Assembly: GCA_041671125.1 (NCBI GenBank)
Contig: JBAZCA010000001.1
Location: 136,120-200,119, forward strand
Length of the DNA stretch: 64,000 bases
Origin: Patescibacteria group bacterium
GTDB taxonomy: Bacteria; Patescibacteriota; Patescibacteriia; Patescibacteriales; JBAZCA01
Direction: 5' to 3'
Position numbers and translations under genes: made by a program. Below the pieces are notes generated by a model. It saw only the letters and a program-made list of their open reading frames with translations, was not told the DNA's origin and did not search any database. Position 1 is the stretch's first letter. Each line of letters begins with the position of its first letter. Below are positions 11,529 through 63,044 of this stretch, piece after piece.

Positions 11529-11715
11529 GATGCGAGCATTGAAAAATTTTGGAAAAATCATGAGCGTGGAAAGCGTGTAAAATTCCACTGTTTGAGCGAA
11601 CCCGCCGAATCGGCGGGGAGCGAGTTTGGAATTTTACTAGCTTTCATAGCGAATGATCCAAAATTTTTCCTGCTCGCGATTTTTGCGCCACTTTTTCTAA
11701 AAAAGTGGCAAAAAT
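11529..11715 (+). repeat. Family B structured element (about 185 bp), copy 1
   Basis: gatgcgagcattgaaaaatttt...cccgccgaatcggcgggg...aaaatttttcctgctcgc...gccactttttctaaaaaagtggc. Nested inverted repeats plus a 3' hairpin. Lies between serC and serA. Confidence 0.8.
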
Positions 11716-13422: not shown

Positions 13423-13607
13423 GATGCGAGCATTGAAAAATTTCGGGCGTATCACGAGCGTAGAAAGTGTGCAAAATTCCACTGTTTGAGGACCCGCCGA
13501 ATCGGCGGGGACGAGTTTGGAATTTTGCTAGCTTTCATAGTGAGTGATCCGAAATTTTTCAATGCTCGCGATTTTTGCGCCACTTTTTCTAAAAAAGTGG
13601 CAAAAAT
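13423..13607 (+). repeat. Family B structured element, copy 2
   Basis: Near-identical by eye to 40121-40304. The listed ORF 13420..13713 is a translation of this repeat. Confidence 0.8.
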
Positions 13608-14535: not shown

Positions 14536-14557
14536 CCGTCCCTTTTGAGGACGGTTT
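14536..14557 (-). terminator. Attenuator terminator 11 nt upstream of cysK ATG
   Basis: Minus strand reads CCGUCCU-CAAAA-GGGACGG followed by AUUUUAUUUAU, then ATG. Its 5' half AAACCGUCCUC can instead pair with GAGGAUGGUUU (14621-14631). Confidence 0.65.
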
Positions 14558-14600
14558 CTTTTTTACAGTCTGCTATTCATGGGATTTTTGACTTTCAGGC

Positions 14601-14699
14601 TTAGACTTTTGACTCGTGGGAAACCATCCTCAAAACCGGCTTGCTACCCGAGCCGCCGCACCCGCCTGAAAGAGACATTTTGAAGATGGATATGTTCAT
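14601..14699 (-). CDS. Candidate leader peptide, Ser/Gly/Cys-rich (32 aa)
   Basis: MNISIFKMSLSGGCGGSGSKPVLRMVSHESKV, verified codon by codon. The ATG lies 6 nt after the -10 box, so it looks leaderless. Confidence 0.55.
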   Translation of the reverse strand: MNISIFKMSLSGGCGGSGSKPVLRMVSHESKV

Positions 14700-14705
14700 A
14701 GTTAT

Positions 14706-14734
14706 ATGCTAAATAATTTTCGCCCGAGTGTCAA
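14706..14734 (-). promoter_or_regulatory. Sigma70-like promoter of the cysK leader
   Basis: Minus strand reads TTGACA (14729-14734), 17 nt spacer, TAGCAT (14706-14711), 6 nt, ATG. Confidence 0.6.
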
Positions 14735-14789
14735 TAGCGCCGAGCGTGTGAGCGAGGCGTCCCGCAGCCGTCAGGCGTGCGGGGCTGTC

Positions 14790-15410
14790 TTAAATAAGTG
14801 ATCCGAGTAAATCATCAACCGTATAACTCTTATCCATCTGCTCGTAATAATCAATCGTCGTATCCGCCAGTTTTTCGTAAAGCCCGGTCCGATAAGCTAA
14901 AAGCGCCGGATAGCATCTTTTTAGAGCCGCGACCTCTTTCTCGCCGGCCAAAGGCTTATACGCTTCACCCCAGATTATCGGCTTCGGGTTGTCAAAATAC
15001 TGTTTAATTTTTTTCTCAATTACTTCTTTCGGCGTATTAAAATAAACTACTTTGGTCAGTTTTTTCATTCTTAGGAGTAGTTCGCCGGACAGGTAAATAA
15101 CGCTCCCGGTCGTGTCAATAACAATATTTTCGCTTATTCCATTTTCCGCGGCATCCAGCGCTTCTTTTAGGTTTTTAGCTTCAAGTTCCAGATATTTCCC
15201 GCTGTTTTCCGGGCATCTCTCGTCATAAGGCTGTCCGAGCCAGCGGCTCATGTCTTTAATTCCCGAATATCCGAGTTCTTCCAGTTCCGGGCCGAGCGCT
15301 TTCTCAATCATGTCGTCAATGCCAAACCTTTTAAAGCCTTTTTCTTTTTTAAGCTTCTCCGACCAGTAAGATTTCCCTACTCCGGCCATGCCGATTAAAG
15401 AGATAAACAT
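14790..15410 (-). CDS. P-loop kinase, shikimate-kinase-like fold; function uncertain
   Basis: Walker A GMAGVGKS. DTTGSVIY aligns with the STGGGVI of shikimate kinases. It lies immediately downstream of thrC, and a separate aroK exists at 28534. Confidence 0.55.
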   Translation of the reverse strand: MFISLIGMAGVGKSYWSEKLKKEKGFKRFGIDDMIEKALGPELEELGYSGIKDMSRWLGQPYDERCPENSGKYLELEAKNLKEALDAAENGISENIVIDTTGSVIYLSGELLLRMKKLTKVVYFNTPKEVIEKKIKQYFDNPKPIIWGEAYKPLAGEKEVAALKRCYPALLAYRTGLYEKLADTTIDYYEQMDKSYTVDDLLGSLI

Positions 15411-15422
15411 AATTTTATGTAA

Positions 15423-16781
15423 TTACAAATTCCCAAGCGCTTTTTTCAACTCCTCATAATTATTTTTAATACTGATTTTCCGCTTCTCTTTCTGCTTTAG
15501 CTTTTTTATTTCTTCCGAATCATCAACGTAAATCCCGGTGTTTTCCTTAATCACGTCAGCGAACTTTAAAGGCGAGGCTGTGGAAAAAACAACTTTAGTA
15601 AGTCCGTTCTCGCCTTCCTTTTCCGCTCCGGCGAACGCCACGGCCGTGTGGGGATCAAGGAGATAATTATATTTTTCATAAACTTTTTTTATGGTTTCGG
15701 CCGTTTCCTTGTCATCCACTCTTTCCGCTTTTATCACTTTGCGGAATTCATCCGGGTTATCATGGAAAACTTTTTGGATGCGGATGAAGTTGCTCGGGTT
15801 GCCGATGTCCATGGCGTTAGAAAGGGTCGCCACCGTCGCCCGCGGCTTAAACTCTCCGGTTTCGTAATATTTTTTCGCCGCGTCATTGGCGTTGGTAACC
15901 GCTAAAAACCGGCTAAAAGGAAATCCCATTTCCCGGGCAAAAACTCCGGCGCAAAGGTTGCCGTAGTTGCCGCAAGGCACGACAAATTCCACCCCCTCTT
16001 GGTCTCCCCCTTTTAAAGGGGGAGATATTTTTTGTCCCGCCCGTTTCCTCCCTCTTTCTAAGGGGGAGGTTAGGAGGGGGTAGAGTTGCGAATAAACATA
16101 AGCGTAATAAACCATCTGCGGCAATAGCCGGCCGACGCTTATGGAATTAGCGGCCGTAAGGTTTAACGCGGCTAAATCCGGGTCATTAAACGCCTGCTTG
16201 GCGAACGCCTGGCAATCGTCAAAAACGCCTTCAACTTCAATAGTCGCAACATTCGGCTCCACCCTGGTCAACTGCTCTTCCTGCAGTTTGGAAACCATGC
16301 CCTTAGGATAAAGGATTACTACTTTCACGTTCGGAACCCCGCCAAGGCCGTGCGCCACGGCGCCGCCGGTATCACCGGAAGTGGCAACGAGAATCGTCGC
16401 GGTTTTTTTCTCTTTTTCAAGGATCCGGCTCATGAACCGCGCGAGAACCCGCGCCGCCACGTCTTTAAACGCGAGCGTCGGGCCATGAAACAATTCAAGA
16501 ACATAATAATCCCCGATCTTTATTAAAGGCAGGGGAAAATTTAAAGCCTCTTCCATCATCACCCGAAGTTCTCCCTCGCTAAAATCGTCGCCTACCCATT
16601 TTAAAAGCGTTTGCGTTGCGACCTCAGTCAAATCCTTTCCTTTTAAATTTTCCAGTTCTTCTTCGGAAAATTTCGGAAAAAATTCGGGAAAATAAAGCCC
16701 GCCGTCCGGCGCGAGGCTCTTTAACATGGCTTCTTTAAAATTAACGGCCGGTGATTTACCGTTTAAGCTAAAAAATTTCAT
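15423..16781 (-). CDS. thrC: Threonine synthase (long type) carrying an in-frame family D repeat insertion
   Basis: The N-terminus GGLYFPEFFP, HGPTLAFKD (PLP lysine) and SGDTGGA are ThrC motifs. The segment LLTSPLERGRKRAGQKISPPLKGGDQEG is encoded by the repeat at 15989-16084. Confidence 0.9.
   Translation of the reverse strand: MKFFSLNGKSPAVNFKEAMLKSLAPDGGLYFPEFFPKFSEEELENLKGKDLTEVATQTLLKWVGDDFSEGELRVMMEEALNFPLPLIKIGDYYVLELFHGPTLAFKDVAARVLARFMSRILEKEKKTATILVATSGDTGGAVAHGLGGVPNVKVVILYPKGMVSKLQEEQLTRVEPNVATIEVEGVFDDCQAFAKQAFNDPDLAALNLTAANSISVGRLLPQMVYYAYVYSQLYPLLTSPLERGRKRAGQKISPPLKGGDQEGVEFVVPCGNYGNLCAGVFAREMGFPFSRFLAVTNANDAAKKYYETGEFKPRATVATLSNAMDIGNPSNFIRIQKVFHDNPDEFRKVIKAERVDDKETAETIKKVYEKYNYLLDPHTAVAFAGAEKEGENGLTKVVFSTASPLKFADVIKENTGIYVDDSEEIKKLKQKEKRKISIKNNYEELKKALGNL
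15989..16084. repeat. Family D palindromic element inside the thrC coding sequence
   Basis: ccaccccctcttggtctcccccttttaaaggggga...tcctccctctttctaagggggaggttaggagggggtag. The reading frame is maintained. Confidence 0.8.
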
Positions 16782-16822
16782 TATTTTTAAGATGCGGTTT
16801 TAGACTGTAGAATAATCATTTT

Positions 16823-16923
16823 TGTCATCTCGACGACCGAAGGGAGGAGAGATCTAATTGCTATGAATGCTTTTTCACGGAGATTAGATTTCTCGCCCTC
16901 CTTGCGTCGGGCTCGAAATGACA
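16823..16923. repeat. Family C palindromic repeat
   Basis: tgtcatctcgacgaccgaagggaggagagatctaa...ttagatttctcgccctccttgcgtcgggctcgaaatgaca. Confidence 0.75.
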
Positions 16924-16974
16924 AAAGAGGGGTTTTTGTTGCGTTCTTCTATAGTCTAAATTTAGATAAAAAAA

Positions 16975-17391
16975 TTAACAGCTTCTTTCATCCTTCTTCA
17001 GCTTGTAATTAAAACTCTCAACAAGCGCTATCCAGCTCGCTTCTATAATATTCAATGACACGCCGATAGTCCCCCAGCGATCTTTGCCGTCGCTTGATTC
17101 AATAAAGACCCGGACTTTGGCCGCGGTCCCGTCTTTGGACGGCAGTACCCGGACTTTGTAATCAGTGAGCTTCATTTTTTTCAGCCGCGGATAGACTTTT
17201 TCAAGGGATTTCCTAAGCGCGTTGTTTAGAGCGTCAACCGGCCCGACGCCAGACGCCGTATTCCGCTCTTTATTAGCGCCAACTTTAATCCCGACTTCAG
17301 CTTCGGCCGCCGGCTCCCCCCAGTCCCTTTCTTTCTGGACTATTACCCGATAGTCCATAAGTTCAAAGAATTTTTTCTCTTTGTGAGGCAT
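16975..17391 (-). CDS. Stand-alone LeuA-type allosteric (LeuA_dimer-like) domain protein
   Basis: SGVGPVDALNNALRKSL...AAKVRVFIESSDGKDRWGTIGVSLNIIEASWIALVESF. It shares the GVGPxDA motif and following strands with the LeuA C-terminus (52332..) and the C-terminus of the 46074..47936 product. Confidence 0.65.
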   Translation of the reverse strand: MPHKEKKFFELMDYRVIVQKERDWGEPAAEAEVGIKVGANKERNTASGVGPVDALNNALRKSLEKVYPRLKKMKLTDYKVRVLPSKDGTAAKVRVFIESSDGKDRWGTIGVSLNIIEASWIALVESFNYKLKKDERSC

Positions 17392-17605
17392 ATTGTTTAG
17401 AGTTATTGAGACGGTGGCAAAACTAATTTTACAACCATCTCAATTATCCCCTTATAATATCAATCTAGCACATACTCCTAAAAATTCAATCCTCAGCTAC
17501 TTATAAATGATTTTTTCGGCATGCTTCGTCATAAAAACGGGATTCATGGAATGAAGCCTGATTTTTGGGAGAGGAGAAAAGACATTTTCTTCCGTCTTTC
17601 CTCCC

Positions 17606-17785
17606 CTAACGAAGCCCCAAATCTCTTTTGCATAGCTTACAAAACGGGGGCCTCATCTGCGGGATCAGGTCGTGGCAATCTTTAAAGATTACCACCTTAA
17701 CCTCTCTCCCGCAGCCTTTTTTCCTGCAAGTAAAAACAGCTGTTTCTCTCTCCCTTGCAGGTTGGAGAGATTTTTTTTGATCCAT
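17606..17785 (-). CDS. Small zinc-ribbon-like protein (59 aa)
   Basis: MDQKKSLQ...FTCRKKGCGREV...PPFCKLCKRD has CxxxC...CxxC. Preceded by CCGGAAAGGAGG and 6 nt, then ATG. Confidence 0.4.
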   Translation of the reverse strand: MDQKKSLQPARERETAVFTCRKKGCGREVKVVIFKDCHDLIPQMRPPFCKLCKRDLGLR

Positions 17786-17926
17786 CAGGAGCCTCCTTTC
17801 CGGCGTCTCATTAACGCCAATTTTTTTATTCCTCCTCAACCCTTAACTCATTTTCCGGTCAGTTTCCGGATAAGGTAAAAGTTGAGGAGAAGAGCGAAGT
17901 CCTCCGTGTTTCGCTCTTCTCTTTTT

Positions 17927-18130
17927 TCACATTCCGCGCGGGATTGGTCCCGGTTGGGATACGATTTGATGACGTTCCTGCTCGAGGCAATACATCGAGC
18001 AGGCCATCTGTCCCAGTAAAGGGGCGAGGTCAAATATCTTAATTCCTCGCCCCTTCACCGGGAACAGTCCCCGGCATACTCTGCAGGGGCAGACAATAAT
18101 CCTGCCCCTGAAAAGTTCAAAACCCTTCAT
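17927..18130 (-). CDS. Small Cys-rich protein (67 aa)
   Basis: MKGFELFRGRIIVCPCRVCRG...ACSMYCLEQ. Preceded by CCAAGGAGGG and 4 nt, then ATG. A hairpin follows at 17885-17925. Confidence 0.4.
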   Translation of the reverse strand: MKGFELFRGRIIVCPCRVCRGLFPVKGRGIKIFDLAPLLGQMACSMYCLEQERHQIVSQPGPIPRGM

Positions 18131-18361
18131 AGTCCCTCCTTGGCGGCGCAAGAACTGCCGCCTCTTTAAAATGAAAAACAATAAATCGCCTCTACAACTC
18201 CAGCCTCTAACAAAAACATCCACGTTATAAATATCAGCGTTCTTTCCGCGTATTTATCCGCGTCAAATCCACATTATAAATAAAGGCCAAAGTAATATCT
18301 GCGATTGTTTTAAAAGAACGGCTATACTTAAATTTTTATGTTTCAGCTAATCAAAAGCATT

Positions 18362-18481
18362 TGTCATTCCCGCGGAGGCGGGAATCCAGGGTAAAAAGGA
18401 ACATCCGGCTAATTACCTTAATATTGTAATCAGCGGTATTACGTTTAACTCCTGGATTCCGGCTCGGAGGCCGGAATGACA
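18362..18481. repeat. Family C palindromic repeat (cattcc/ggaatg variant)
   Basis: tgtcattcccgcggaggcgggaatccaggg...cctggattccggctcggaggccggaatgaca. Confidence 0.75.
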
Positions 18482-18485
18482 TAAA

Positions 18486-18517
18486 GATAAAAAAATACCG
18501 CCCCAATTGCGGGCGGC
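18486..18517 (-). terminator. Attenuator terminator of the Thr/Ile/Met leader
   Basis: Minus strand reads CCGCCC-GCAAUUG-GGGCGG followed by UAUUUUUUUAU. Its 5' half lies within a 12 nt sequence that is perfectly complementary to 18575-18586. Confidence 0.65.
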
Positions 18518-18596
18518 TGGCTGATTATTCTTTGACTTTCTTACTTCTAACTTCTTACTTCTAACTTATTTTCGCCGCCCGCAATTAAAACCCCGG

Positions 18597-18656
18597 TCAT
18601 AATAATTCCGGTCATCATCATAATGGTCTTAATTGTGGTGGCGTTTATTCTCGTCA
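18597..18656 (-). CDS. Candidate leader peptide, Thr/Ile/Met-rich (19 aa)
   Basis: MTRINATTIKTIMMMTGII, verified codon by codon. Similar in style to E. coli ThrL ([21 protein letters not shown]). The ATG lies 6-7 nt after the -10 box. Confidence 0.6.
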
Positions 18657-18662
18657 TGTTTA

Positions 18663-18692
18663 TATTTAATCAAACACCAACGAAACTGTCAA
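18663..18692 (-). promoter_or_regulatory. Sigma70-like promoter of the Thr/Ile/Met leader
   Basis: Minus strand reads TTGACA (18687-18692), 18 nt spacer, TAAATA (18663-18668), 6 nt, ATG. Alternatively a 17 nt spacer, TTAAAT and 7 nt. Confidence 0.55.
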
Positions 18693-18721
18693 TAACATGC
18701 ACCTGACACGGCATCCAAAAT

Positions 18722-18794
18722 AAAAAAAAAGCCCTCCGCGCGAAGATTAAGGGATTTGTGGTTCTGCGAAATACACAGAACGCGCGCGAAGGGC
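18722..18794 (-). terminator. Long-stem terminator ending the GC-rich locus
   Basis: Minus strand GCCCUUCGCGCG ... CGCGCGGAGGGC forms a 12 bp stem enclosing a smaller hairpin, followed by U9. Confidence 0.6.
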
Positions 18795-18799
18795 CTGGT

Positions 18800-19060
18800 T
18801 TACCGGCGGTCAGGACACAAGGGTGCCCTTTCTTTCGTCGCCGGAGGGGGGGCGGTGAGGGGCGAGTTGCCCCTCAAAGTAGCCAACTCTTGTGGAGACC
18901 CTAACCAGGCCTCCATGCTAACACGAAAATCCGCTCCCACCGGCGGTTCCCCAACCGCCGAAATAATCCCGCGGTGCCTAAGGCATTCCGGTCTCTGGCA
19001 CCCGGGCCCGCATGTCAACGTCTCCTCCCCGGGGGTGGGCGGAGTCTTTTGTTCGGACAT
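18800..19060 (-). other. GC-rich locus: either an 86-aa ORF or a structured RNA (unresolved)
   Basis: GGCGGAAAGGAGG, 6 nt, then ATG, opening an ORF MSEQKTPPTPGEETLTCGPGCQRPECL... The region also contains many GC helices: ggcctggtt/aaccaggcc, gaggggc/gcccctc, cggcggtt/aaccgccg and ggtgcc/ggcacc. Confidence 0.35.
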
Positions 19061-19190
19061 TTCTGTCCTCCTTTCCGCCCGGCGATGCCGGGCTGCTGTT
19101 AATAACGATCAACACCTCTCTGATTTTCATTGTCTTTCGTGTTTAAATCAAAAACAGAAAGCTATTGACGATTTATTATTTTTTAATGAA

Positions 19191-19410
19191 CTTAGGACTT
19201 ACGCGTTTGGAAAATAAACTCATTTTGTCATTCCGGTCGGAGCGTAGCGGAGAGCCGGAATCCAGCCTGCCTGCCGGCAGGCAGGGATTTAAAGGTAATA
19301 ATGTGTATATTTTTAAGATGCAGTTAGAGCTTTTAACCCTGGATTCCGGATAGCCTTACGGCTTCCGGAATGACAAAAGGGGTATTTGCGCGCAAACGCG
19401 TAAGTCCTAG
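19191..19410. repeat. Nested composite palindrome (outer acgcgtaagtcc arms around a family C core)
   Basis: cttaggacttacgcg...tgtcattccgg...cctgcctgccggcaggcagg...ccggaatgaca...cgcgtaagtcctag. Confidence 0.75.
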
Positions 19411-28430: not shown

Positions 28431-28520
28431 GCGAAGTGGAACGTAGTGAAGGATCTCGTTAAAAACAGTAAGCGTCGCGAAGACGGGATTCTTCCCCCGC
28501 AAATGCGGGGTCAGAATGAC
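28421..28520. repeat. Family C palindromic repeat overlapping the aroA stop
   Basis: gtcatcctgagcgaagtggaacgtagtgaaggatctcg...gggattcttcccccgcaaatgcggggtcagaatgac. Confidence 0.8.
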
Positions 28521-28533
28521 GAAAAGAGAATAT

Positions 28534-29856
28534 ATGAATATAATCCTTATCGGTTTCATGGGTTCGGGAAAAACTACGCTAGCCAAAATACTCACAGACG
28601 CTTTGGGCTGGAAGGCAATTGAAATGGATGATTTGATTTTAAAAAAAAGCGGTCGAAGGACCATTGGTGAAATTTTTGAAAAAAACGGCGAATCGGTCTT
28701 TCGAAAATTGGAAGCGCAAATCGCCAGAGAATTATCCAATACTAATAATAAAATCATCTCTACCGGCGGGGGCGTTATCATGAACGCTAAAAATATCGCT
28801 AACCTGAAAAAAACCGGAAAAATTGTTTATTTAAAAGACAGCTTTGAAAATATCCGGGAAAGATTAAAAAAAGATAAAACCCGGCCGCTCTTTCAGGATT
28901 TAAAGAAAGCAAGAAAACTGTTTAAGCTTCGCCAGTCCTTATACGAGAAATACGCCGATGAAATTATTAATTGCGCGGCTAACCCGGACTTAAACCGCGT
29001 CAGCCGGGAAATTACTAAACGGCTGGAAAAAGACTTAAAAAAAATCTGCCTGATTATCGGCGATCCCGTAGCCCACAGCCTCTCGCCCGCCATGCATAAC
29101 GCCGGCTATCGGGCTTTAAAAATTGATAACCAATTTATTTTTCTTTCAGCCAAAGTTAAGCCGCGGGAATTAAAAAACAGCGTCCGGGCGGCGAGAACTT
29201 TAGGAATCCGCGGACTTACCTCTACCATGCCGCACAAACAAGCGATAATGAAATACCTTGACCGGATTGACCCAATCGCGAAAAAAATCGGCGCGGTTAA
29301 TACGGTGGTTAATGAGAGCGGCCGACTGACCGGCTATAATACTGACTGGCTGGGCGCCGTAATCCCTTTGGAAAATTCTGCCGGTAAAAATGGCTTAAAA
29401 AATAAAAGAGTGGCTCTACTCGGTTCGGGCGGCGCGGCCCGGGCGATTGCCTACGGGTTAGCGAAAAAAGGCGCCCGCTTAAAAATCTTTGACCGCGACA
29501 TTAATAACGCGCGAAAACTGGCTAAGGAATTCGGGGCAGAATCCGGCGGTTATTCGCAAATCCATGAAGTTAAAAGCTCTGACATCATTATCAACGCCAC
29601 GCCGATCGGCATGAAACCGCGTGAAAATGAATCACTGGTACCAGCGGAATTTTTACGTAAAGACCAGGTTGTTTTTGACGCCGTCTATTTTCCCCGAAAA
29701 ACCAAACTTTTAAAACAGGCGGAAAAAAAAGGCGCGAAAATTATTCCCGGCTTGGAAATGCTTTTATATCAGGGAGCGGCCCAGTTTGAATTATATACCG
29801 GCAGAAAAGCGCCGGTTGAAGCAATGAGAAAAGCCTTGAAAAGATGCGAGCATTGA
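28534..29856 (+). CDS. aroK-aroE: Shikimate kinase / shikimate 5-dehydrogenase fusion
   Basis: N-terminus has GFMGSGKTT and STGGGVI (shikimate kinase). C-terminus has GDPVAHSLSPAMHN, MPHK, NTDW and GSGGAARA (shikimate dehydrogenase). Start placed at MNIILIGF. The stop lies in family B repeat copy 3. Confidence 0.85.
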   Translation: MNIILIGFMGSGKTTLAKILTDALGWKAIEMDDLILKKSGRRTIGEIFEKNGESVFRKLEAQIARELSNTNNKIISTGGGVIMNAKNIANLKKTGKIVYLKDSFENIRERLKKDKTRPLFQDLKKARKLFKLRQSLYEKYADEIINCAANPDLNRVSREITKRLEKDLKKICLIIGDPVAHSLSPAMHNAGYRALKIDNQFIFLSAKVKPRELKNSVRAARTLGIRGLTSTMPHKQAIMKYLDRIDPIAKKIGAVNTVVNESGRLTGYNTDWLGAVIPLENSAGKNGLKNKRVALLGSGGAARAIAYGLAKKGARLKIFDRDINNARKLAKEFGAESGGYSQIHEVKSSDIIINATPIGMKPRENESLVPAEFLRKDQVVFDAVYFPRKTKLLKQAEKKGAKIIPGLEMLLYQGAAQFELYTGRKAPVEAMRKALKRCEH

Positions 29857-46073: not shown

Positions 46074-47936
46074 TCACTTTTTTTTGTCCTCTTTTTTATT
46101 ACATAAAATATTATACGCGCGTTCAAACGCCTCTATGCTCGCCACAATTATATCCGGCGAGGTGGCGGTTGAAATAACTTTGTTTTCAGCCTCGTCTTTT
46201 AAGCCCATAGTCACTTCAACCGACGCGTCAGTTCCTTTGCGGTCAATTTTTACGTCAAAATCAATGAGCCAGTAATTCGGCAGTTTTTCGTTCTTTATGA
46301 CTTCGCGCACGGCTTTCATTATCGCGTCCACCGGACCGACGCCGAAAGATTTTCCCCGGCAAACCCGCTTTCCCGCTACCCGGACGCAAACCTCGGCTTC
46401 GGCCCGGGCGGTTTTTGACGTTGATACGTTGAAATCTTCCACGCTGATGATTTTTTTCGCTCCCGGATCGGTTTTTAAGATGGACTCAATAATATGCTGT
46501 AAGTCCGATTTCCTCATCTTATCTTCTTTTTTAAAAAAATTTTCCACTTCAGCCTGGATGGCGACGAGATATTTTTTATCAAGGCTCACCCCGAATTTAC
46601 CCTTAACGGTTTTTTCCGTCTTCTTTAAAACCGGACATTTGGTAAAAAGCACTTCCACTTTATCTTTTTCCACGGTTGACTGGATATTGTAAAGTTTCAT
46701 TTTAAGGTAATGGTCTACCTCGGAGAGGTTAGGTTCAATTGACGGCGGCGAAGGCAGAATTTTTAACATAGTCACCGGATCCTTAAGCCCGTTGCCGGTC
46801 AAAACGCAAACAACGGTTTCTTCTTTTTTTATTACGCCTTTTAAAGCGAGCATTTTTACGGCCGCGAGCGGCAGGGCGGCTGACGGCTCAACAAAAATTG
46901 ATTCTTCGCTGGCGAGCTCTTTTTCCGCTTTAAGAATTTCCTCGTCCGAGACTTCTAAAGCCATGCCTTTGGATTCTTTTATATCCCTCAAAACTTTCAG
47001 GCCGTCCACCGGGTAACCGACCGCCACGGCCGAAGCGATTGTCCGGGGTTTGGGGATTGGTTTTATTTTCGTGGTTTTTTCGCGGTAAGCCAGGGCAATA
47101 GTGTTGGACCCTTCGGGCTGGACGCCGATTACTTTCGGCAGTTTGTTAATAAAACCAAGCTCGTAAAACTCGCGCATGCCTTTATAGATGGCCGCAATGT
47201 TGGTTCCGCAACCGACCGGCACGATTAAGTAGTCTGGCGCGTTCCAGCCGAGCTGTTCCACTATTTCATAGCCTTGGGATTTCTGACCTTCACCGCGGAA
47301 TACATAGTCTCCGGCCAGATAAAATTTATATTTTTTCGCGATTTCTTCGGCCAGTTTCGCGCACTCCGAATAAGTCGCCCGAACCTGGATTACCCGGGCG
47401 CCGTAAGCGAGGGTCTGCGCCAGCTTTCCGATCGGCGTGCCTTCGGGCACGACGATATAAGCCGGAATTCCGGCTTGAGAGGCGTAGGCCGAAACCGAAG
47501 CGGCCATATTGCCGGTTGAAGCGACGACGACCGCCTTAGCGCCCATTTCCAGGGCTTTGGTTATTTCCACCATAGTCCCCCGGTCCTTAAAGCCGCCAGT
47601 CGGATTAGAAGTCTCATCCTTAAAATACAAATTTTCCAGTCCGAGCCGCTTGGCGATTTTCCGCGATTTCCGAAGCGGCGTCCCGCCTTCGTTTAACGTT
47701 ACCAATTTTTTAAGATCAAGAATCGGGTAAAAATTAAGATACTTGGTCGCGGAAATCGGCGCGTACTTTAAATTAAACTGGTTTAACCGGCATTTGATAA
47801 AATCCCAGTCATATTCGGCTTCCAAAGCGTCGCCGCATTTTAAACAGGACGAAGATGTTTCTTTTTCATCCCAAACCGTCCCGCATTTAACGCATCGCAA
47901 CCGGTAAAACTTAACTGTGCCTTTTGAAGAAACCAT
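46074..47936 (-). CDS. Threonine-synthase-like PLP enzyme fused to a C-terminal LeuA-type allosteric domain
   Basis: N-terminal zinc ribbon (CVKCG...CLKCG). FKDETSNPTGGFKDRG (PLP lysine) and TGNGLKD are ThrC-family motifs. A linker of about 100 aa follows. The C-terminus GVGPVDAIMKAVREV...DASVEVTM...SPDIIVASIEAFERAYN parallels the LeuA C-terminus. Confidence 0.7.
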   Translation of the reverse strand: MVSSKGTVKFYRLRCVKCGTVWDEKETSSSCLKCGDALEAEYDWDFIKCRLNQFNLKYAPISATKYLNFYPILDLKKLVTLNEGGTPLRKSRKIAKRLGLENLYFKDETSNPTGGFKDRGTMVEITKALEMGAKAVVVASTGNMAASVSAYASQAGIPAYIVVPEGTPIGKLAQTLAYGARVIQVRATYSECAKLAEEIAKKYKFYLAGDYVFRGEGQKSQGYEIVEQLGWNAPDYLIVPVGCGTNIAAIYKGMREFYELGFINKLPKVIGVQPEGSNTIALAYREKTTKIKPIPKPRTIASAVAVGYPVDGLKVLRDIKESKGMALEVSDEEILKAEKELASEESIFVEPSAALPLAAVKMLALKGVIKKEETVVCVLTGNGLKDPVTMLKILPSPPSIEPNLSEVDHYLKMKLYNIQSTVEKDKVEVLFTKCPVLKKTEKTVKGKFGVSLDKKYLVAIQAEVENFFKKEDKMRKSDLQHIIESILKTDPGAKKIISVEDFNVSTSKTARAEAEVCVRVAGKRVCRGKSFGVGPVDAIMKAVREVIKNEKLPNYWLIDFDVKIDRKGTDASVEVTMGLKDEAENKVISTATSPDIIVASIEAFERAYNILCNKKEDKKK

Positions 47937-48090: not shown

Positions 48091-48152
48091 TAAAAAACCA
48101 CCTATGTTGGTGGCAGTTTTCTTTTCCTTTTAGTCCAATTATGAAACTGCCA
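48091..48152 (-). terminator. ilv attenuator: terminator and antiterminator segments
   Basis: Minus strand: GUGGCAGUUU (48142-48151) is perfectly complementary to AAACUGCCAC (48112-48121). The terminator is CCACC-AACAUA-GGUGG followed by UUUUUU (48094-48115). Confidence 0.65.
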
Positions 48153-48218
48153 CTAGGTGGGAATAATCAAGCTTACTACTACTACAATATCCAGGTTTTT
48201 TGGCAGTTTTTTTATCAT
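48153..48218 (-). CDS. Candidate leader peptide, Ile/Val/Leu-rich (21 aa)
   Basis: MIKKLPKNLDIVVVVSLIIPT, verified codon by codon. 11 of 21 residues are branched-chain. The ATG lies 6 nt after the -10 box. Confidence 0.7.
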   Translation of the reverse strand: MIKKLPKNLDIVVVVSLIIPT

Positions 48219-48224
48219 GTTATA

Positions 48225-48253
48225 ATTCTAAAGCTTTTCCTTATGCGTGTCAA
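48225..48253 (-). promoter_or_regulatory. Sigma70-like promoter of the ilv leader
   Basis: Minus strand reads TTGACA (48248-48253), 17 nt spacer, TAGAAT (48225-48230), 6 nt, ATG. Confidence 0.6.
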
Positions 48254-54504: not shown

Positions 54505-54837
54505 TCATATTATCTCCTTTCTCCCCGGTATACATACCCGGGGCAATAAATCTCCTTTGACGTGCCCTTCAGCGAAGGGCACGTCAACGCCGCCGGAGGA
54601 AGGAGCCTCAGGCTCCTTCTTTTTTGTTAAGACCCTTAGCCGATACTCCGGCAAAGGTTCGCACTCAACACAAACCCCGTCATAAGTGACCGGAGCCTGC
54701 GCCGACGGGCACTTCACTCCCCGGAAATCGCAACCAGCGCATATCCGGAAAATTTCATGACCGTCTTCCCTGATAAAAAGGCACCCGTGCGGTTCATCGC
54801 GGTCGCACTCTTCGCACTTCCTCCAAAAATGAAACAT
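54505..54837 (-). CDS. Small Cys-rich (zinc-ribbon-like) protein; the 3' third is built of hairpin repeats
   Basis: MFHFWRKCEECDRDEPHGC...RICAGCDFRGVKC...CVEC. Preceded by CCGGAAAGGAGGAAGGA then ATG. The last 40 or so codons overlap three consecutive perfect hairpins, so the real C-terminus is uncertain. Confidence 0.4.
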   Translation of the reverse strand: MFHFWRKCEECDRDEPHGCLFIREDGHEIFRICAGCDFRGVKCPSAQAPVTYDGVCVECEPLPEYRLRVLTKKKEPEAPSSGGVDVPFAEGHVKGDLLPRVCIPGRKEII

Positions 54838-54881
54838 TCCTTCCTCCTTTCCGGGTCATGCCGCCTTCCGGCGCGACCCTT

Positions 54882-62783: not shown

Positions 62784-63044
62784 AGCGTTGCGTCATTTTA
62801 GGCAAATTAGATTCGCTTAAAATGATATTAATTTTTACCTGGCCGGAAAACAAAAAGCTCCCCGCCAGCGATAACCATTTCTGGTCATCCATATCCCTTT
62901 CGGAATATGGCCAACCAAGGCATTCTGACGAGGAGTCATTTACCTTGGTTGGACTTTGTGCCATGCCTCAAGCATTAAAATGATTGAAGTTTAGGCTTAA
63001 ATTGTTATTCTAATATTAAAACTTTTTTAAACATTTGTAAACAT

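Follow-up and report, generated by a model that had tools for sequence, protein, structure and literature searches.

We analyzed a 64,000-nucleotide (nt) stretch of DNA from a Patescibacteria group bacterium (GenBank assembly GCA_041671125.1, contig JBAZCA010000001.1, positions 136,120 to 200,119 of the forward strand), hereafter called the window. On its minus strand, between positions 18,692 and 18,486, lies an element with a promoter, a short open reading frame (ORF) rich in Thr, Ile, and Met codons, and an intrinsic terminator whose 5′ arm can alternatively pair with RNA inside the ORF. Judged from its sequence and that of its relatives, this element is probably a ribosome-mediated (leader-peptide) transcription attenuator of the threonine (thr) operon downstream, which encodes a standalone LeuA_dimer protein, threonine synthase (thrC), and a P-loop kinase. 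An earlier note on this DNA had proposed a leader in the style of ThrL, with a terminator and a competing antiterminator, for the same operon. The conservation, the constraint at the RNA level, and the set of alternative pairings described below (1:2, 2:3, and 3:4, for RNA segments numbered in order) bear out that proposal. What had to be revised were the length of the ORF and the position of one pairing arm, and these revisions alter the mechanics, in that the ribosome translates through the antiterminator arm.

Anatomy of the thr leader

The promoter had been read as TTGACA, 18 nt, TAAATA, and 6 nt to the ATG. Both hexamers were found, TTGACA at 18692-18687 and TAAATA after 18 nt, but the distance from the latter to the ATG is 5 nt and not 6; parsing the −10 region as TTAAAT is the better choice (Table 1). 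No Shine-Dalgarno (SD) sequence was found before the ORF, which is normal for this DNA because an SD-like site accompanies only six of the window's 58 long ORFs. Given the promoter geometry, with 5-6 nt from the −10 region to the ATG, the leader mRNA is probably leaderless.

The ORF had been placed at 18597-18656, with a stop after ...GII. As shown in Table 1, the frame instead starts one position earlier on this strand, with its ATG at 18657-18655, and runs for 36 codons to a TAG at 18549-18547; the TAA that was probably taken for the stop lies out of frame. The count of 5 Thr, 5 Ile, and 4 Met in the first 19 residues (MTRINATTIKTIMMMTGII) was correct. Over codons 2-21, 6 Thr, 5 Ile, and 4 Met make up 15 of the 20 codons, compared with a background frequency of 0.152 in the proteins of the window (P = 3.8e-9).

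Because the ORF is longer than had been held, the upstream complement of the terminator, previously located 11 nt after the stop, falls inside the ORF, where AAUUGCGGGCGG corresponds to codons 24-28 (L-I-A-G-G). The perfect 12-bp complementarity ascribed to this arm is present and in fact extends over 13 nt, 18586-18574 against 18517-18505. The terminator is likewise as described, GCCGCCC-GCAATTG-GGGCGGT followed by seven T (18517-18489). A complement of at least 11 nt to the terminator 5′ arm arose in none of 20,000 shuffles of the upstream 138 nt and in none of 6,353 random 138-nt stretches of the window, where the maximum was 10 nt.

Conservation and constraint at the RNA level

A degenerate metagenome scan and look-ups via neighboring proteins yielded four further distinct versions of the element, giving five variants with that of the window. 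They are designated L002 (identical to L039; a Patescibacteria metagenome-assembled genome and the nearest genome in the species collection), L038 (identical to L053), L040, and L041. The earlier reading had hinged on conservation of the small ORF, and a frame of 35-36 codons is kept in all five variants, as are the stop position, the terminator with its 7-bp G+C-rich stem and seven U, and 10-11 bp of the 2:3 pairing, amid indel-rich flanks. The TTGACA promoter is kept in the window, L002, L038/L053, and L041; the region upstream of the L040 leader differs. Wherever the contig reaches far enough, the element lies upstream of the LeuA_dimer-thrC-kinase genes, with synteny in L002, L041, and L053.

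The leader was then compared at synonymous sites between the window and L002. Residues that are unchanged use the same codon at 22 of 23 positions in the leader, compared with 64.8% in four neighboring genes (P ~6e-4), indicating that the leader ORF is constrained at the RNA level, beyond the protein. Furthermore, with a single exception, substitutions at paired positions either preserve the pairing or strengthen it. An ACC to ACU change in L041 leaves a U-G pair, whereas in L040 a GCG to GUG change leaves 2:3 with U-G and provides 1:2 with A-U in place of an A-C mismatch, an ACC to GUC change converts an A-C mismatch into G-C, and a 3-nt deletion is accompanied by changes in the partners of the lost pairs. 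GCCGCCCGCA does not change among the variants. The GCA able to pair with segment 2 is the only constant part of the terminator loop, the remaining letters of which differ (AAUU, AAAC, AACC, ACC). Pair counts over the five variants gave no double-sided covariation in 1:2 and 2:3 because the sequences are too similar, and the 3:4 stem was left uncounted because it is invariant in the alignment (A4). The viral contig scan returned no relatives, and the window holds no other copies.

Alternative folding of the leader RNA

The 180-nt leader RNA folded with a z-score of −4.06 against shuffles. Segment 1 pairs with segment 2 to form the 1:2 protector (−21 to −25 kcal/mol in a transcript truncated after segment 2), and pair counting showed that 93% of the 1:2 pair cells are paired, compared with 26-53% when the partners were slid. 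The inner hairpin at the tip of this structure has 10 of 10 pairs invariant across the five variants. Segment 2 can alternatively pair with segment 3 to form the 2:3 antiterminator, a duplex of −21 to −25 kcal/mol that spans 13 bp in the window, 11 bp in L002, L038, and L041, and 10 bp in L040. The 3:4 terminator reached −14.4 to −15 kcal/mol (−14.4 for the window hairpin). The two global fold states differ by no more than a few kcal/mol. When nt 22-58 were blocked to mimic a stalled ribosome, 2:3 formed in five of five variants. The spacer before segment 3 holds a 14-nt tandem duplication (18565-18538), and its sequence varies between strains while always remaining A/G-rich.

From this anatomy we infer the following mechanism. 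Transcription would start at or a few nt from the AUG, and the nascent RNA would fold 1:2 first, pairing the Thr/Ile codons 6-11 with codons 22-28. With ample charged tRNAs, a ribosome translating the ORF would cross segment 2 and arrive at the stop, which lies within the purine-rich spacer. Segment 2 would then be covered, or recaptured by segment 1 behind the ribosome, and a ribosome within the 56-nt loop should also sterically hinder 2:3. Under these conditions, 3:4 would pair and RNA polymerase would terminate at the U-tract. When Thr-tRNA or Ile-tRNA, possibly also Met-tRNA, is scarce, the ribosome would stall on codons 7-21, thereby keeping segment 1 and the inner hairpin open and freeing segment 2. 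The free segment 2 would pair with segment 3 as an 11-13-bp antiterminator, so that the terminator would be blocked and read-through would continue via a leader laden with inserted cassettes into the operon.

Sister leaders in the same region

A leader of the same design stands before the ilv operon of the window (Table 1). Its terminator lies at 48114-48097, and its ORF stop is placed directly before segment 2, which is the canonical geometry. In relatives, the leaders MTEKLPKILDIVVVVSLIIPT, MITRPQNILLVNLILPT, and MRPTITNIIIIIIIIATQVVG precede the fusion gene that opens this operon, each with equal promoter-to-ATG spacing and a terminator. They are versions with runs of Val, Leu, or Ile, and the one in L047 (ATG at 979) has eight consecutive Ile codons. 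The ilv attenuators of the window and its relatives thus indicate that the lineage uses leader-peptide attenuation. The geometry shared by these leaders and the thr leader, about 6 nt from the −10 region to the ATG and no SD sequence, suggests that their mRNAs are leaderless.

The fusion protein itself (46074-47936, minus strand), which joins a ThrC-family pyridoxal phosphate (PLP) enzyme to a LeuA_dimer domain, is widespread in the candidate phyla radiation (CPR) and is annotated there as "threonine synthase." Its fused domain, set beside the split LeuA_dimer protein of the thr operon (16975-17391), suggests that this domain regulates ThrC-type enzymes, and the fusion may supply 2-oxobutanoate for isoleucine synthesis.

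Another small ORF, upstream of the cysK/M-type gene, may be a weak attenuator. A hairpin (CCGTCC..GGACGG plus AUUUUAUUU) ends directly before that gene (ATG 14524). This site is only a candidate because it has one Cys codon and a weak terminator. In the relative L043/L044, a leader-like ORF (MLNLARKIVLIVVEVVVMVMTPFRVCRVRVRA; TTGACA-17-TATAAT-6-ATG) occupies 471-569, between a leuB-type gene and the ilv leader, and this relative may carry tandem attenuators. No convincing Trp, Phe/Tyr, or Ser leader was seen before the trp, pheA/tyrA, aro, or ser genes.

The DNA downstream and the presumed target operon

The stretch that separates the terminator from the LeuA_dimer gene (17391) contains a repeat and two SD-bearing small ORFs (sORFs), as had been reported. 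The repeat resembles a miniature inverted-repeat transposable element (MITE), with inverted repeats of the GTCATTCC...GGAATGAC type, and related arms recur at 19220-19265. L041 has a different insert at the same post-terminator site, which looks like an insertion hot spot. The remainder of the 5′ leader consists of conserved backbone blocks with strain-specific cassettes between them; the cassettes have strong GGAGG sites and occur in differing combinations in the window, L002, L040, L041, and L053. The comparison with relatives for intervening insertions, which the earlier note had called for, thus found the MITE-like element and the cassettes to be strain-specific and the leader to be retained.

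The cassettes, which are intergenic, were also noticed in their own right. Their sORFs have 50-63% GC and carry the binding sites GGAAAGGAGG, against a genome of about 40% GC that mostly lacks SD sites, and their products are often Cys-rich (zinc-ribbon-like). They vary mosaically between conserved flanks, as if mobile or exchanged by recombination, and one insert is flanked by a TGAGGA direct repeat.

Three arrangements had been left open by the earlier note: a long composite transcript, control of the sORFs themselves, or an attenuator uncoupled from its operon by insertions. Because the leader is conserved while the cassettes vary, the constant selected target is the thr operon. The strain-to-strain variation of the cassettes counters the idea that the sORFs are the target, and continuing selection on the leader counters an uncoupled relic, whereas strain-specific inserts between conserved blocks, together with selection on the leader, favor the composite transcript. 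Terminator scans of four strains showed that, from the leader promoter as far as thrC, the attenuator's own intrinsic terminator is the only one on the sense strand. On these sequences, a long composite transcript reading through into the operon appears likeliest.

The first gene of the operon encodes a standalone LeuA_dimer protein of 138 aa, which shows 87-88% amino acid identity and 55% third-position identity between the window and L002. Its only close homologs were P0001 and P0106; the remaining hits came from other phyla and correspond to the C-terminal parts of citramalate synthases. The 1.1-kb gap before this gene was also considered as a decayed catalytic half of a citramalate synthase. 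This was rejected, as the gap consists of conserved blocks and strain-specific GC-rich cassettes, and a remnant was also ruled out by the purifying selection on the 138-aa protein. Directly after thrC lies a 206-aa P-loop kinase that is weakly shikimate-kinase-like and matches the NCBIfam model hom_kin_desulfo at 49.6 bits, below its cut-off of 197. The thrC-kinase pair is conserved in distant CPR genomes (L049-L051), and the kinase is a candidate for a non-orthologous homoserine kinase like DvMF_0971 of Desulfovibrio (PMC5764234). A true aroK-aroE fusion was found elsewhere in the window, at 28516-29856.

Weighing the attenuation mechanism

Several observations weigh against the proposed mechanism. 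At 36 codons, the ORF is long for a leader peptide; it spans segment 2 and ends 25 nt past it, and therefore segment 2 would lie uncovered while a ribosome waits at the stop. It is not obvious why a thrC-kinase operon should respond to Met. Since AUGAUGAUG makes up the inner stem, the invariant Met triplet may serve the structure and not the sensing. The minimum-energy fold of the free RNA slightly favors the antiterminator in four of the five variants, so the default without translation may be read-through, unlike in the classical trp model. Support for the structures comes from energetics and from one-sided changes among five close sequences. In L038/L053 an ACA to AAA change (T8K) costs both a 1:2 pair and a Thr codon, and T7 and T11 are missing from L040, leaving T16 and T21 as the only invariant Thr codons. 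Distant CPR thrC loci (L049-L052; 57-60% identity) had no leader or terminator upstream and therefore could not widen the alignment; by this comparison the element appears specific to a small clade. The peptide has a 19-residue Kyte-Doolittle hydropathy maximum of 1.72 with charged ends, which is compatible with a membrane microprotein, and a C-terminal K-L/F-x-V-x-S motif is retained through a synonymous GUA/GUU change. Finally, inserted DNA separates the terminator from the operon by 0.5-1.1 kb, and the block GGATTGAATTTTTAGGAGTATGTGCTAGATT (17495-17452), which is conserved in all strains and reads TTGAAT-16-TAGATT, could be an independent promoter that adds attenuator-independent transcription.

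The inserted DNA and this conserved block also speak for the strongest alternative, in which the attenuator works without meaningful control of the thr operon: read-through would express the sORF cassettes or die (for example, through Rho), and the proximal block at about 17490-17462 would drive the operon. The strong GGAGG sites on the cassette sORFs just downstream would fit this as well. We nevertheless consider it unlikely. The cassettes are strain-variable whereas the leader is under strong purifying selection, so they are not a conserved target, and the scans of four strains gave no intrinsic terminator between leader and operon. The proximal block matches the consensus at 8 of 12 positions, whereas three leader promoters in the window have a perfect TTGACA; moreover, two promoters are not mutually exclusive.

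Less probable still is that the ORF, under a promoter and terminator of its own, encodes a small hydrophobic membrane protein, where the complement serves only to stabilize or structure the mRNA and the Thr, Ile, and Met residues form a membrane helix. In addition to the hydropathy and the C-terminal motif, the conserved length and stop position of the ORF and its annotation as a gene in L041 and L053 are in keeping with such a protein, and peTrpL provides a precedent for a trans-acting leader peptide (PMC7298713). The conserved hydrophobic peptide may have a function of its own, which could coexist with attenuation. The ilv leader is likewise hydrophobic, so hydropathy does not tell leader peptides and microproteins apart. 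The frozen synonymous sites reveal constraint beyond coding, and Lys (T8K) and Asn (V23N) substitutions occur inside the supposed helix. The 36-aa peptide had no Pfam match and no exact protein record, and a phmmer search of 1.84 billion representative proteins returned a single relative, which places it outside any widespread small-protein family. A membrane-protein gene would also leave unexplained the exclusive 2:3 and 3:4 pairings, the sister ilv attenuators, and the constant position upstream of the thr operon.

A type I toxin-antitoxin module or stand-alone small RNA (sRNA) of about 170 nt, lying near the thr operon by coincidence, is very improbable: the small hydrophobic ORF with its strong promoter and terminator, a terminator-like hairpin on the opposite strand over the ORF start (18638-18657), and the precedent of the attenuator-derived sRNA rnTrpL (PMC7968998) would suit it, but that hairpin is weak with 3 G-C pairs only, scans gave no antisense promoter, copies elsewhere in the window and viral-contig matches were absent, the amino acids that abound in the peptide are the very products of the neighboring pathway, and the design matches the ilv attenuators.

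Genomic setting

Pfam and NCBIfam matches together with protein look-ups showed that the window is one long amino acid biosynthesis island. It includes serB/serC/serA-type genes, a cysK/M-type synthase, the P-loop kinase, thrC, and standalone LeuA_dimer genes, genes for prephenate dehydratase and dehydrogenase, archaeal-type early shikimate genes, aspartate kinase, asd, the remaining aro genes, and the trp and ilv operons. Most starts in the window are preceded by A/T-rich sequence, and several strong promoters lie 5-6 nt from an ATG. The sequence thus suggests SD-independent and partly leaderless translation initiation in the source organism. A match to LOOT RNA (Rfam RF03000) was found on the minus strand at 62870-62997, with 79.5 bits against a gathering score of 46.4. 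A repeated intergenic element, at 11560-11650 and 13450-13540 on the minus strand, lies upstream of the serC-type and serA-type genes and yields near-identical spurious sORFs (MKASKIPNS...LKQWNF...).

Table 1. Positions of the thr leader, its pairing segments, neighboring DNA, and related leaders (window numbering unless a relative is named)
Feature	Position	Strand	Remarks
−35 hexamer TTGACA	18687..18692	minus	read in the sequence; same hexamer and geometry as the ilv leader promoter
−10 region	18663..18669	minus	TTAAAT (17-nt spacer, 6 nt to ATG) or TAAATA (18-nt spacer, 5 nt)
Leader ORF MTRINATTIKTIMMMTGIIMTGVLIAGGENKLEVRS	18547..18657	minus	36 codons plus TAG at 18549-18547
Segment 1 GCCACCACAAUUAAGACC	18625..18642	minus	codons 6-11 (A-T-T-I-K-T); 5′ arm of the 1:2 protector; fold of truncated transcript
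Inner hairpin UUAUGAUGAU / AUUAUUAUGA	18597..18623	minus	codons 12-20 (I-M-M-M-T-G-I-I-M); tip of 1:2
Segment 2 GGUUUUAAUUGCGGGCGGC	18574..18592	minus	codons 22-28; partner of segment 1 or, via 18586-18574, of segment 3
Spacer	18518..18573	minus	56 nt, purine-rich, unstructured; last 8 codons and stop codon
Segment 3 GCCGCCCGCAAUU	18505..18517	minus	terminator 5′ arm and loop; antiterminator 3′ arm
Segment 4 GGGCGGU + A + seven U	18489..18503	minus	terminator 3′ arm (18503-18497) and U-tract (18495-18489)
MITE-like inverted-repeat element	18360..18482		inserted just after the terminator; specific to the window, missing from L002 and L038/L053
Rest of the 5′ leader	17452..18299	minus	four conserved backbone blocks, about 250 nt in total, with strain-specific cassettes between
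Backbone blocks	18299-18282; 18200-18174; 17894-17832 (hairpin); 17495-17452	minus	four-strain comparison
Cassette sORFs	18130-17927 (67 aa); 17785-17606 (59 aa)	minus	GC-rich, SD-bearing
Cassette sites, window	17606-18130; 18800-19060; 54505-54852		
Cassette sites, L002	5615-5806		
Cassette sites, L040	1989-2153		
Cassette sites, L041	946-1146; 1345-1540		
Cassette sites, L053	2244-2431; 2666-2857		
Presumed regulated operon	14790..17391	minus	LeuA_dimer 17391-16975; threonine synthase 16781-15423; P-loop kinase 15410-14790
ilv attenuator	48091-48253	minus	TTGACA (48253-48248)-17-TAGAAT-6-ATG (48218); ORF MIKKLPKNLDIVVVVSLIIPT
ilv attenuator segments		minus	AAACUGCCA / UGGCAGUUU / AAACUGCCACC / GGUGGU + six U; 1:2, 2:3, 3:4
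ilv operon genes			ThrC-family PLP enzyme-LeuA_dimer fusion (ilvA-like), ilvE, ilvD, ilvB, ilvC, ridA
cysK-upstream site	14536-14735	minus	TTGACA-17-TAGCAT-6-ATG 14699; 32-aa sORF MNISIFKMSLSGGCGGSGSKPVLRMVSHESKV
Leader peptide, L002 (= L039)			MMKFIATTIKTIMMMTGIIMTGVLIAGGRTKLKVQS
Leader peptide, L038 (= L053)			MTRINATKIKTIMMMTGIIMTGVLIAGGKNKLEVRS
Leader peptide, L041			MTRISATTIKTIMMMTGIIMTGVLIAGGKNKLEVRS
Leader peptide, L040			MRTINAVTIKIMMMTGIIMTGNLIVGGKRKFKVQS

Implications for CPR biology

Reduced genomes are a known trait of CPR organisms, and the source genome has hardly any SD sites. At least two switches in one biosynthesis island would mean that this lineage produces the amino acids concerned and uses tRNA charging as the signal that controls their production. 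Attenuators of this kind would imply that translation closely follows transcription in these cells. The thr leader would in addition be a regulatory leader that tolerates repeated insertion of mobile cassettes without losing its switch. Since gene callers miss or mislabel leader ORFs, their recognition improves the annotation of CPR metabolism.

A broader proposal is offered as speculation that we would not expect to hold in full. In it, the clade, which seldom uses SD sequences, would have an entire regulon of leader-peptide attenuators on leaderless mRNAs, comprising thr, ilv, and perhaps cysK. The thr system would be a variant apart, with its 36 codons translated across the antiterminator arm and with sensing of Thr, Ile, and Met, all of the aspartate family. 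Mobile sORF cassettes, Cys-rich and SD-bearing, would have settled in its long read-through leader and would thus be expressed only during amino acid starvation, and the peptide would perhaps be a membrane microprotein. If true, it would be the first evidence that kinetic coupling of ribosome and RNA polymerase controls biosynthesis in CPR.

Comparison with known systems

E. coli ThrL is a peptide of 21 residues, similar in style to MTRINATTIKTIMMMTGII...AGG. The two leaders share a short ORF rich in Thr and Ile codons before threonine-synthesis genes, a terminator 5′ arm that can pair upstream, a protector hairpin that includes the regulatory codons, and a logic in which stalling leads to read-through. 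They differ in that the CPR leader has 36 codons instead of 21, a Met triplet, and an ORF that extends across the antiterminator arm and stops 25 nt past it. The CPR leader also lacks an SD sequence, is probably leaderless, and has its terminator 0.5-1.1 kb from the first gene. In contrast to the E. coli thr operon, the CPR operon has no thrA or thrB and begins with a LeuA_dimer regulatory protein. Rfam searches of the whole window at the gathering threshold, and of 17300-19400 at E up to 10, returned neither Thr_leader (RF00506) nor any other relevant family for the leader. Functionally, it is a thr-type leader-peptide attenuator that stands outside the Rfam Thr_leader family.

Leader-peptide attenuation is textbook biology, and the mechanism is therefore not new; it has been documented in Proteobacteria, Actinobacteria, Firmicutes, and Deinococcus. 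Our literature search found no paper linking it to Patescibacteria or CPR. The ilvGMEDA and ilvBN operons of E. coli are both controlled by leader-peptide attenuators. An attenuator survey of Actinobacteria reported none for threonine (PMC1262725).

In Deinococcus deserti, leader-peptide ORFs start at or 1 nt from the transcript 5′ end (de Groot et al. 2014, PMC4007540). Start sites there were mapped by differential RNA sequencing (dRNA-seq), and the leaders lie upstream of amino acid biosynthesis or tRNA-synthetase genes and had been missed by gene callers (PMC4007540). That organism belongs to a different phylum, and the leaderless status of the CPR leaders is, in contrast, read from promoter geometry. 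In Sinorhizobium meliloti, trpL yields a terminated sRNA, rnTrpL, and a peptide, peTrpL, each reported to have functions of its own (PMC7298713, PMC7968998). A similar role could account for the unusually long and conserved CPR thr peptide, although this likeness is a lead only.

Leader-peptide attenuators of ilv genes have also been described for Corynebacterium ilvBNC (PMC10272879, PMC11857589) and S. aureus (PMC5794164). Known ilv attenuators and the ilv leader of the window both have runs of Val/Ile/Leu codons and the 1:2/2:3/3:4 set of pairings. The CPR ilv leaders are classical in that their stop lies directly before segment 2, whereas the stop of the thr leader lies beyond it. Unlike known ilv systems, the CPR ilv operon has as its first gene a ThrC-family enzyme fused to a LeuA_dimer domain.

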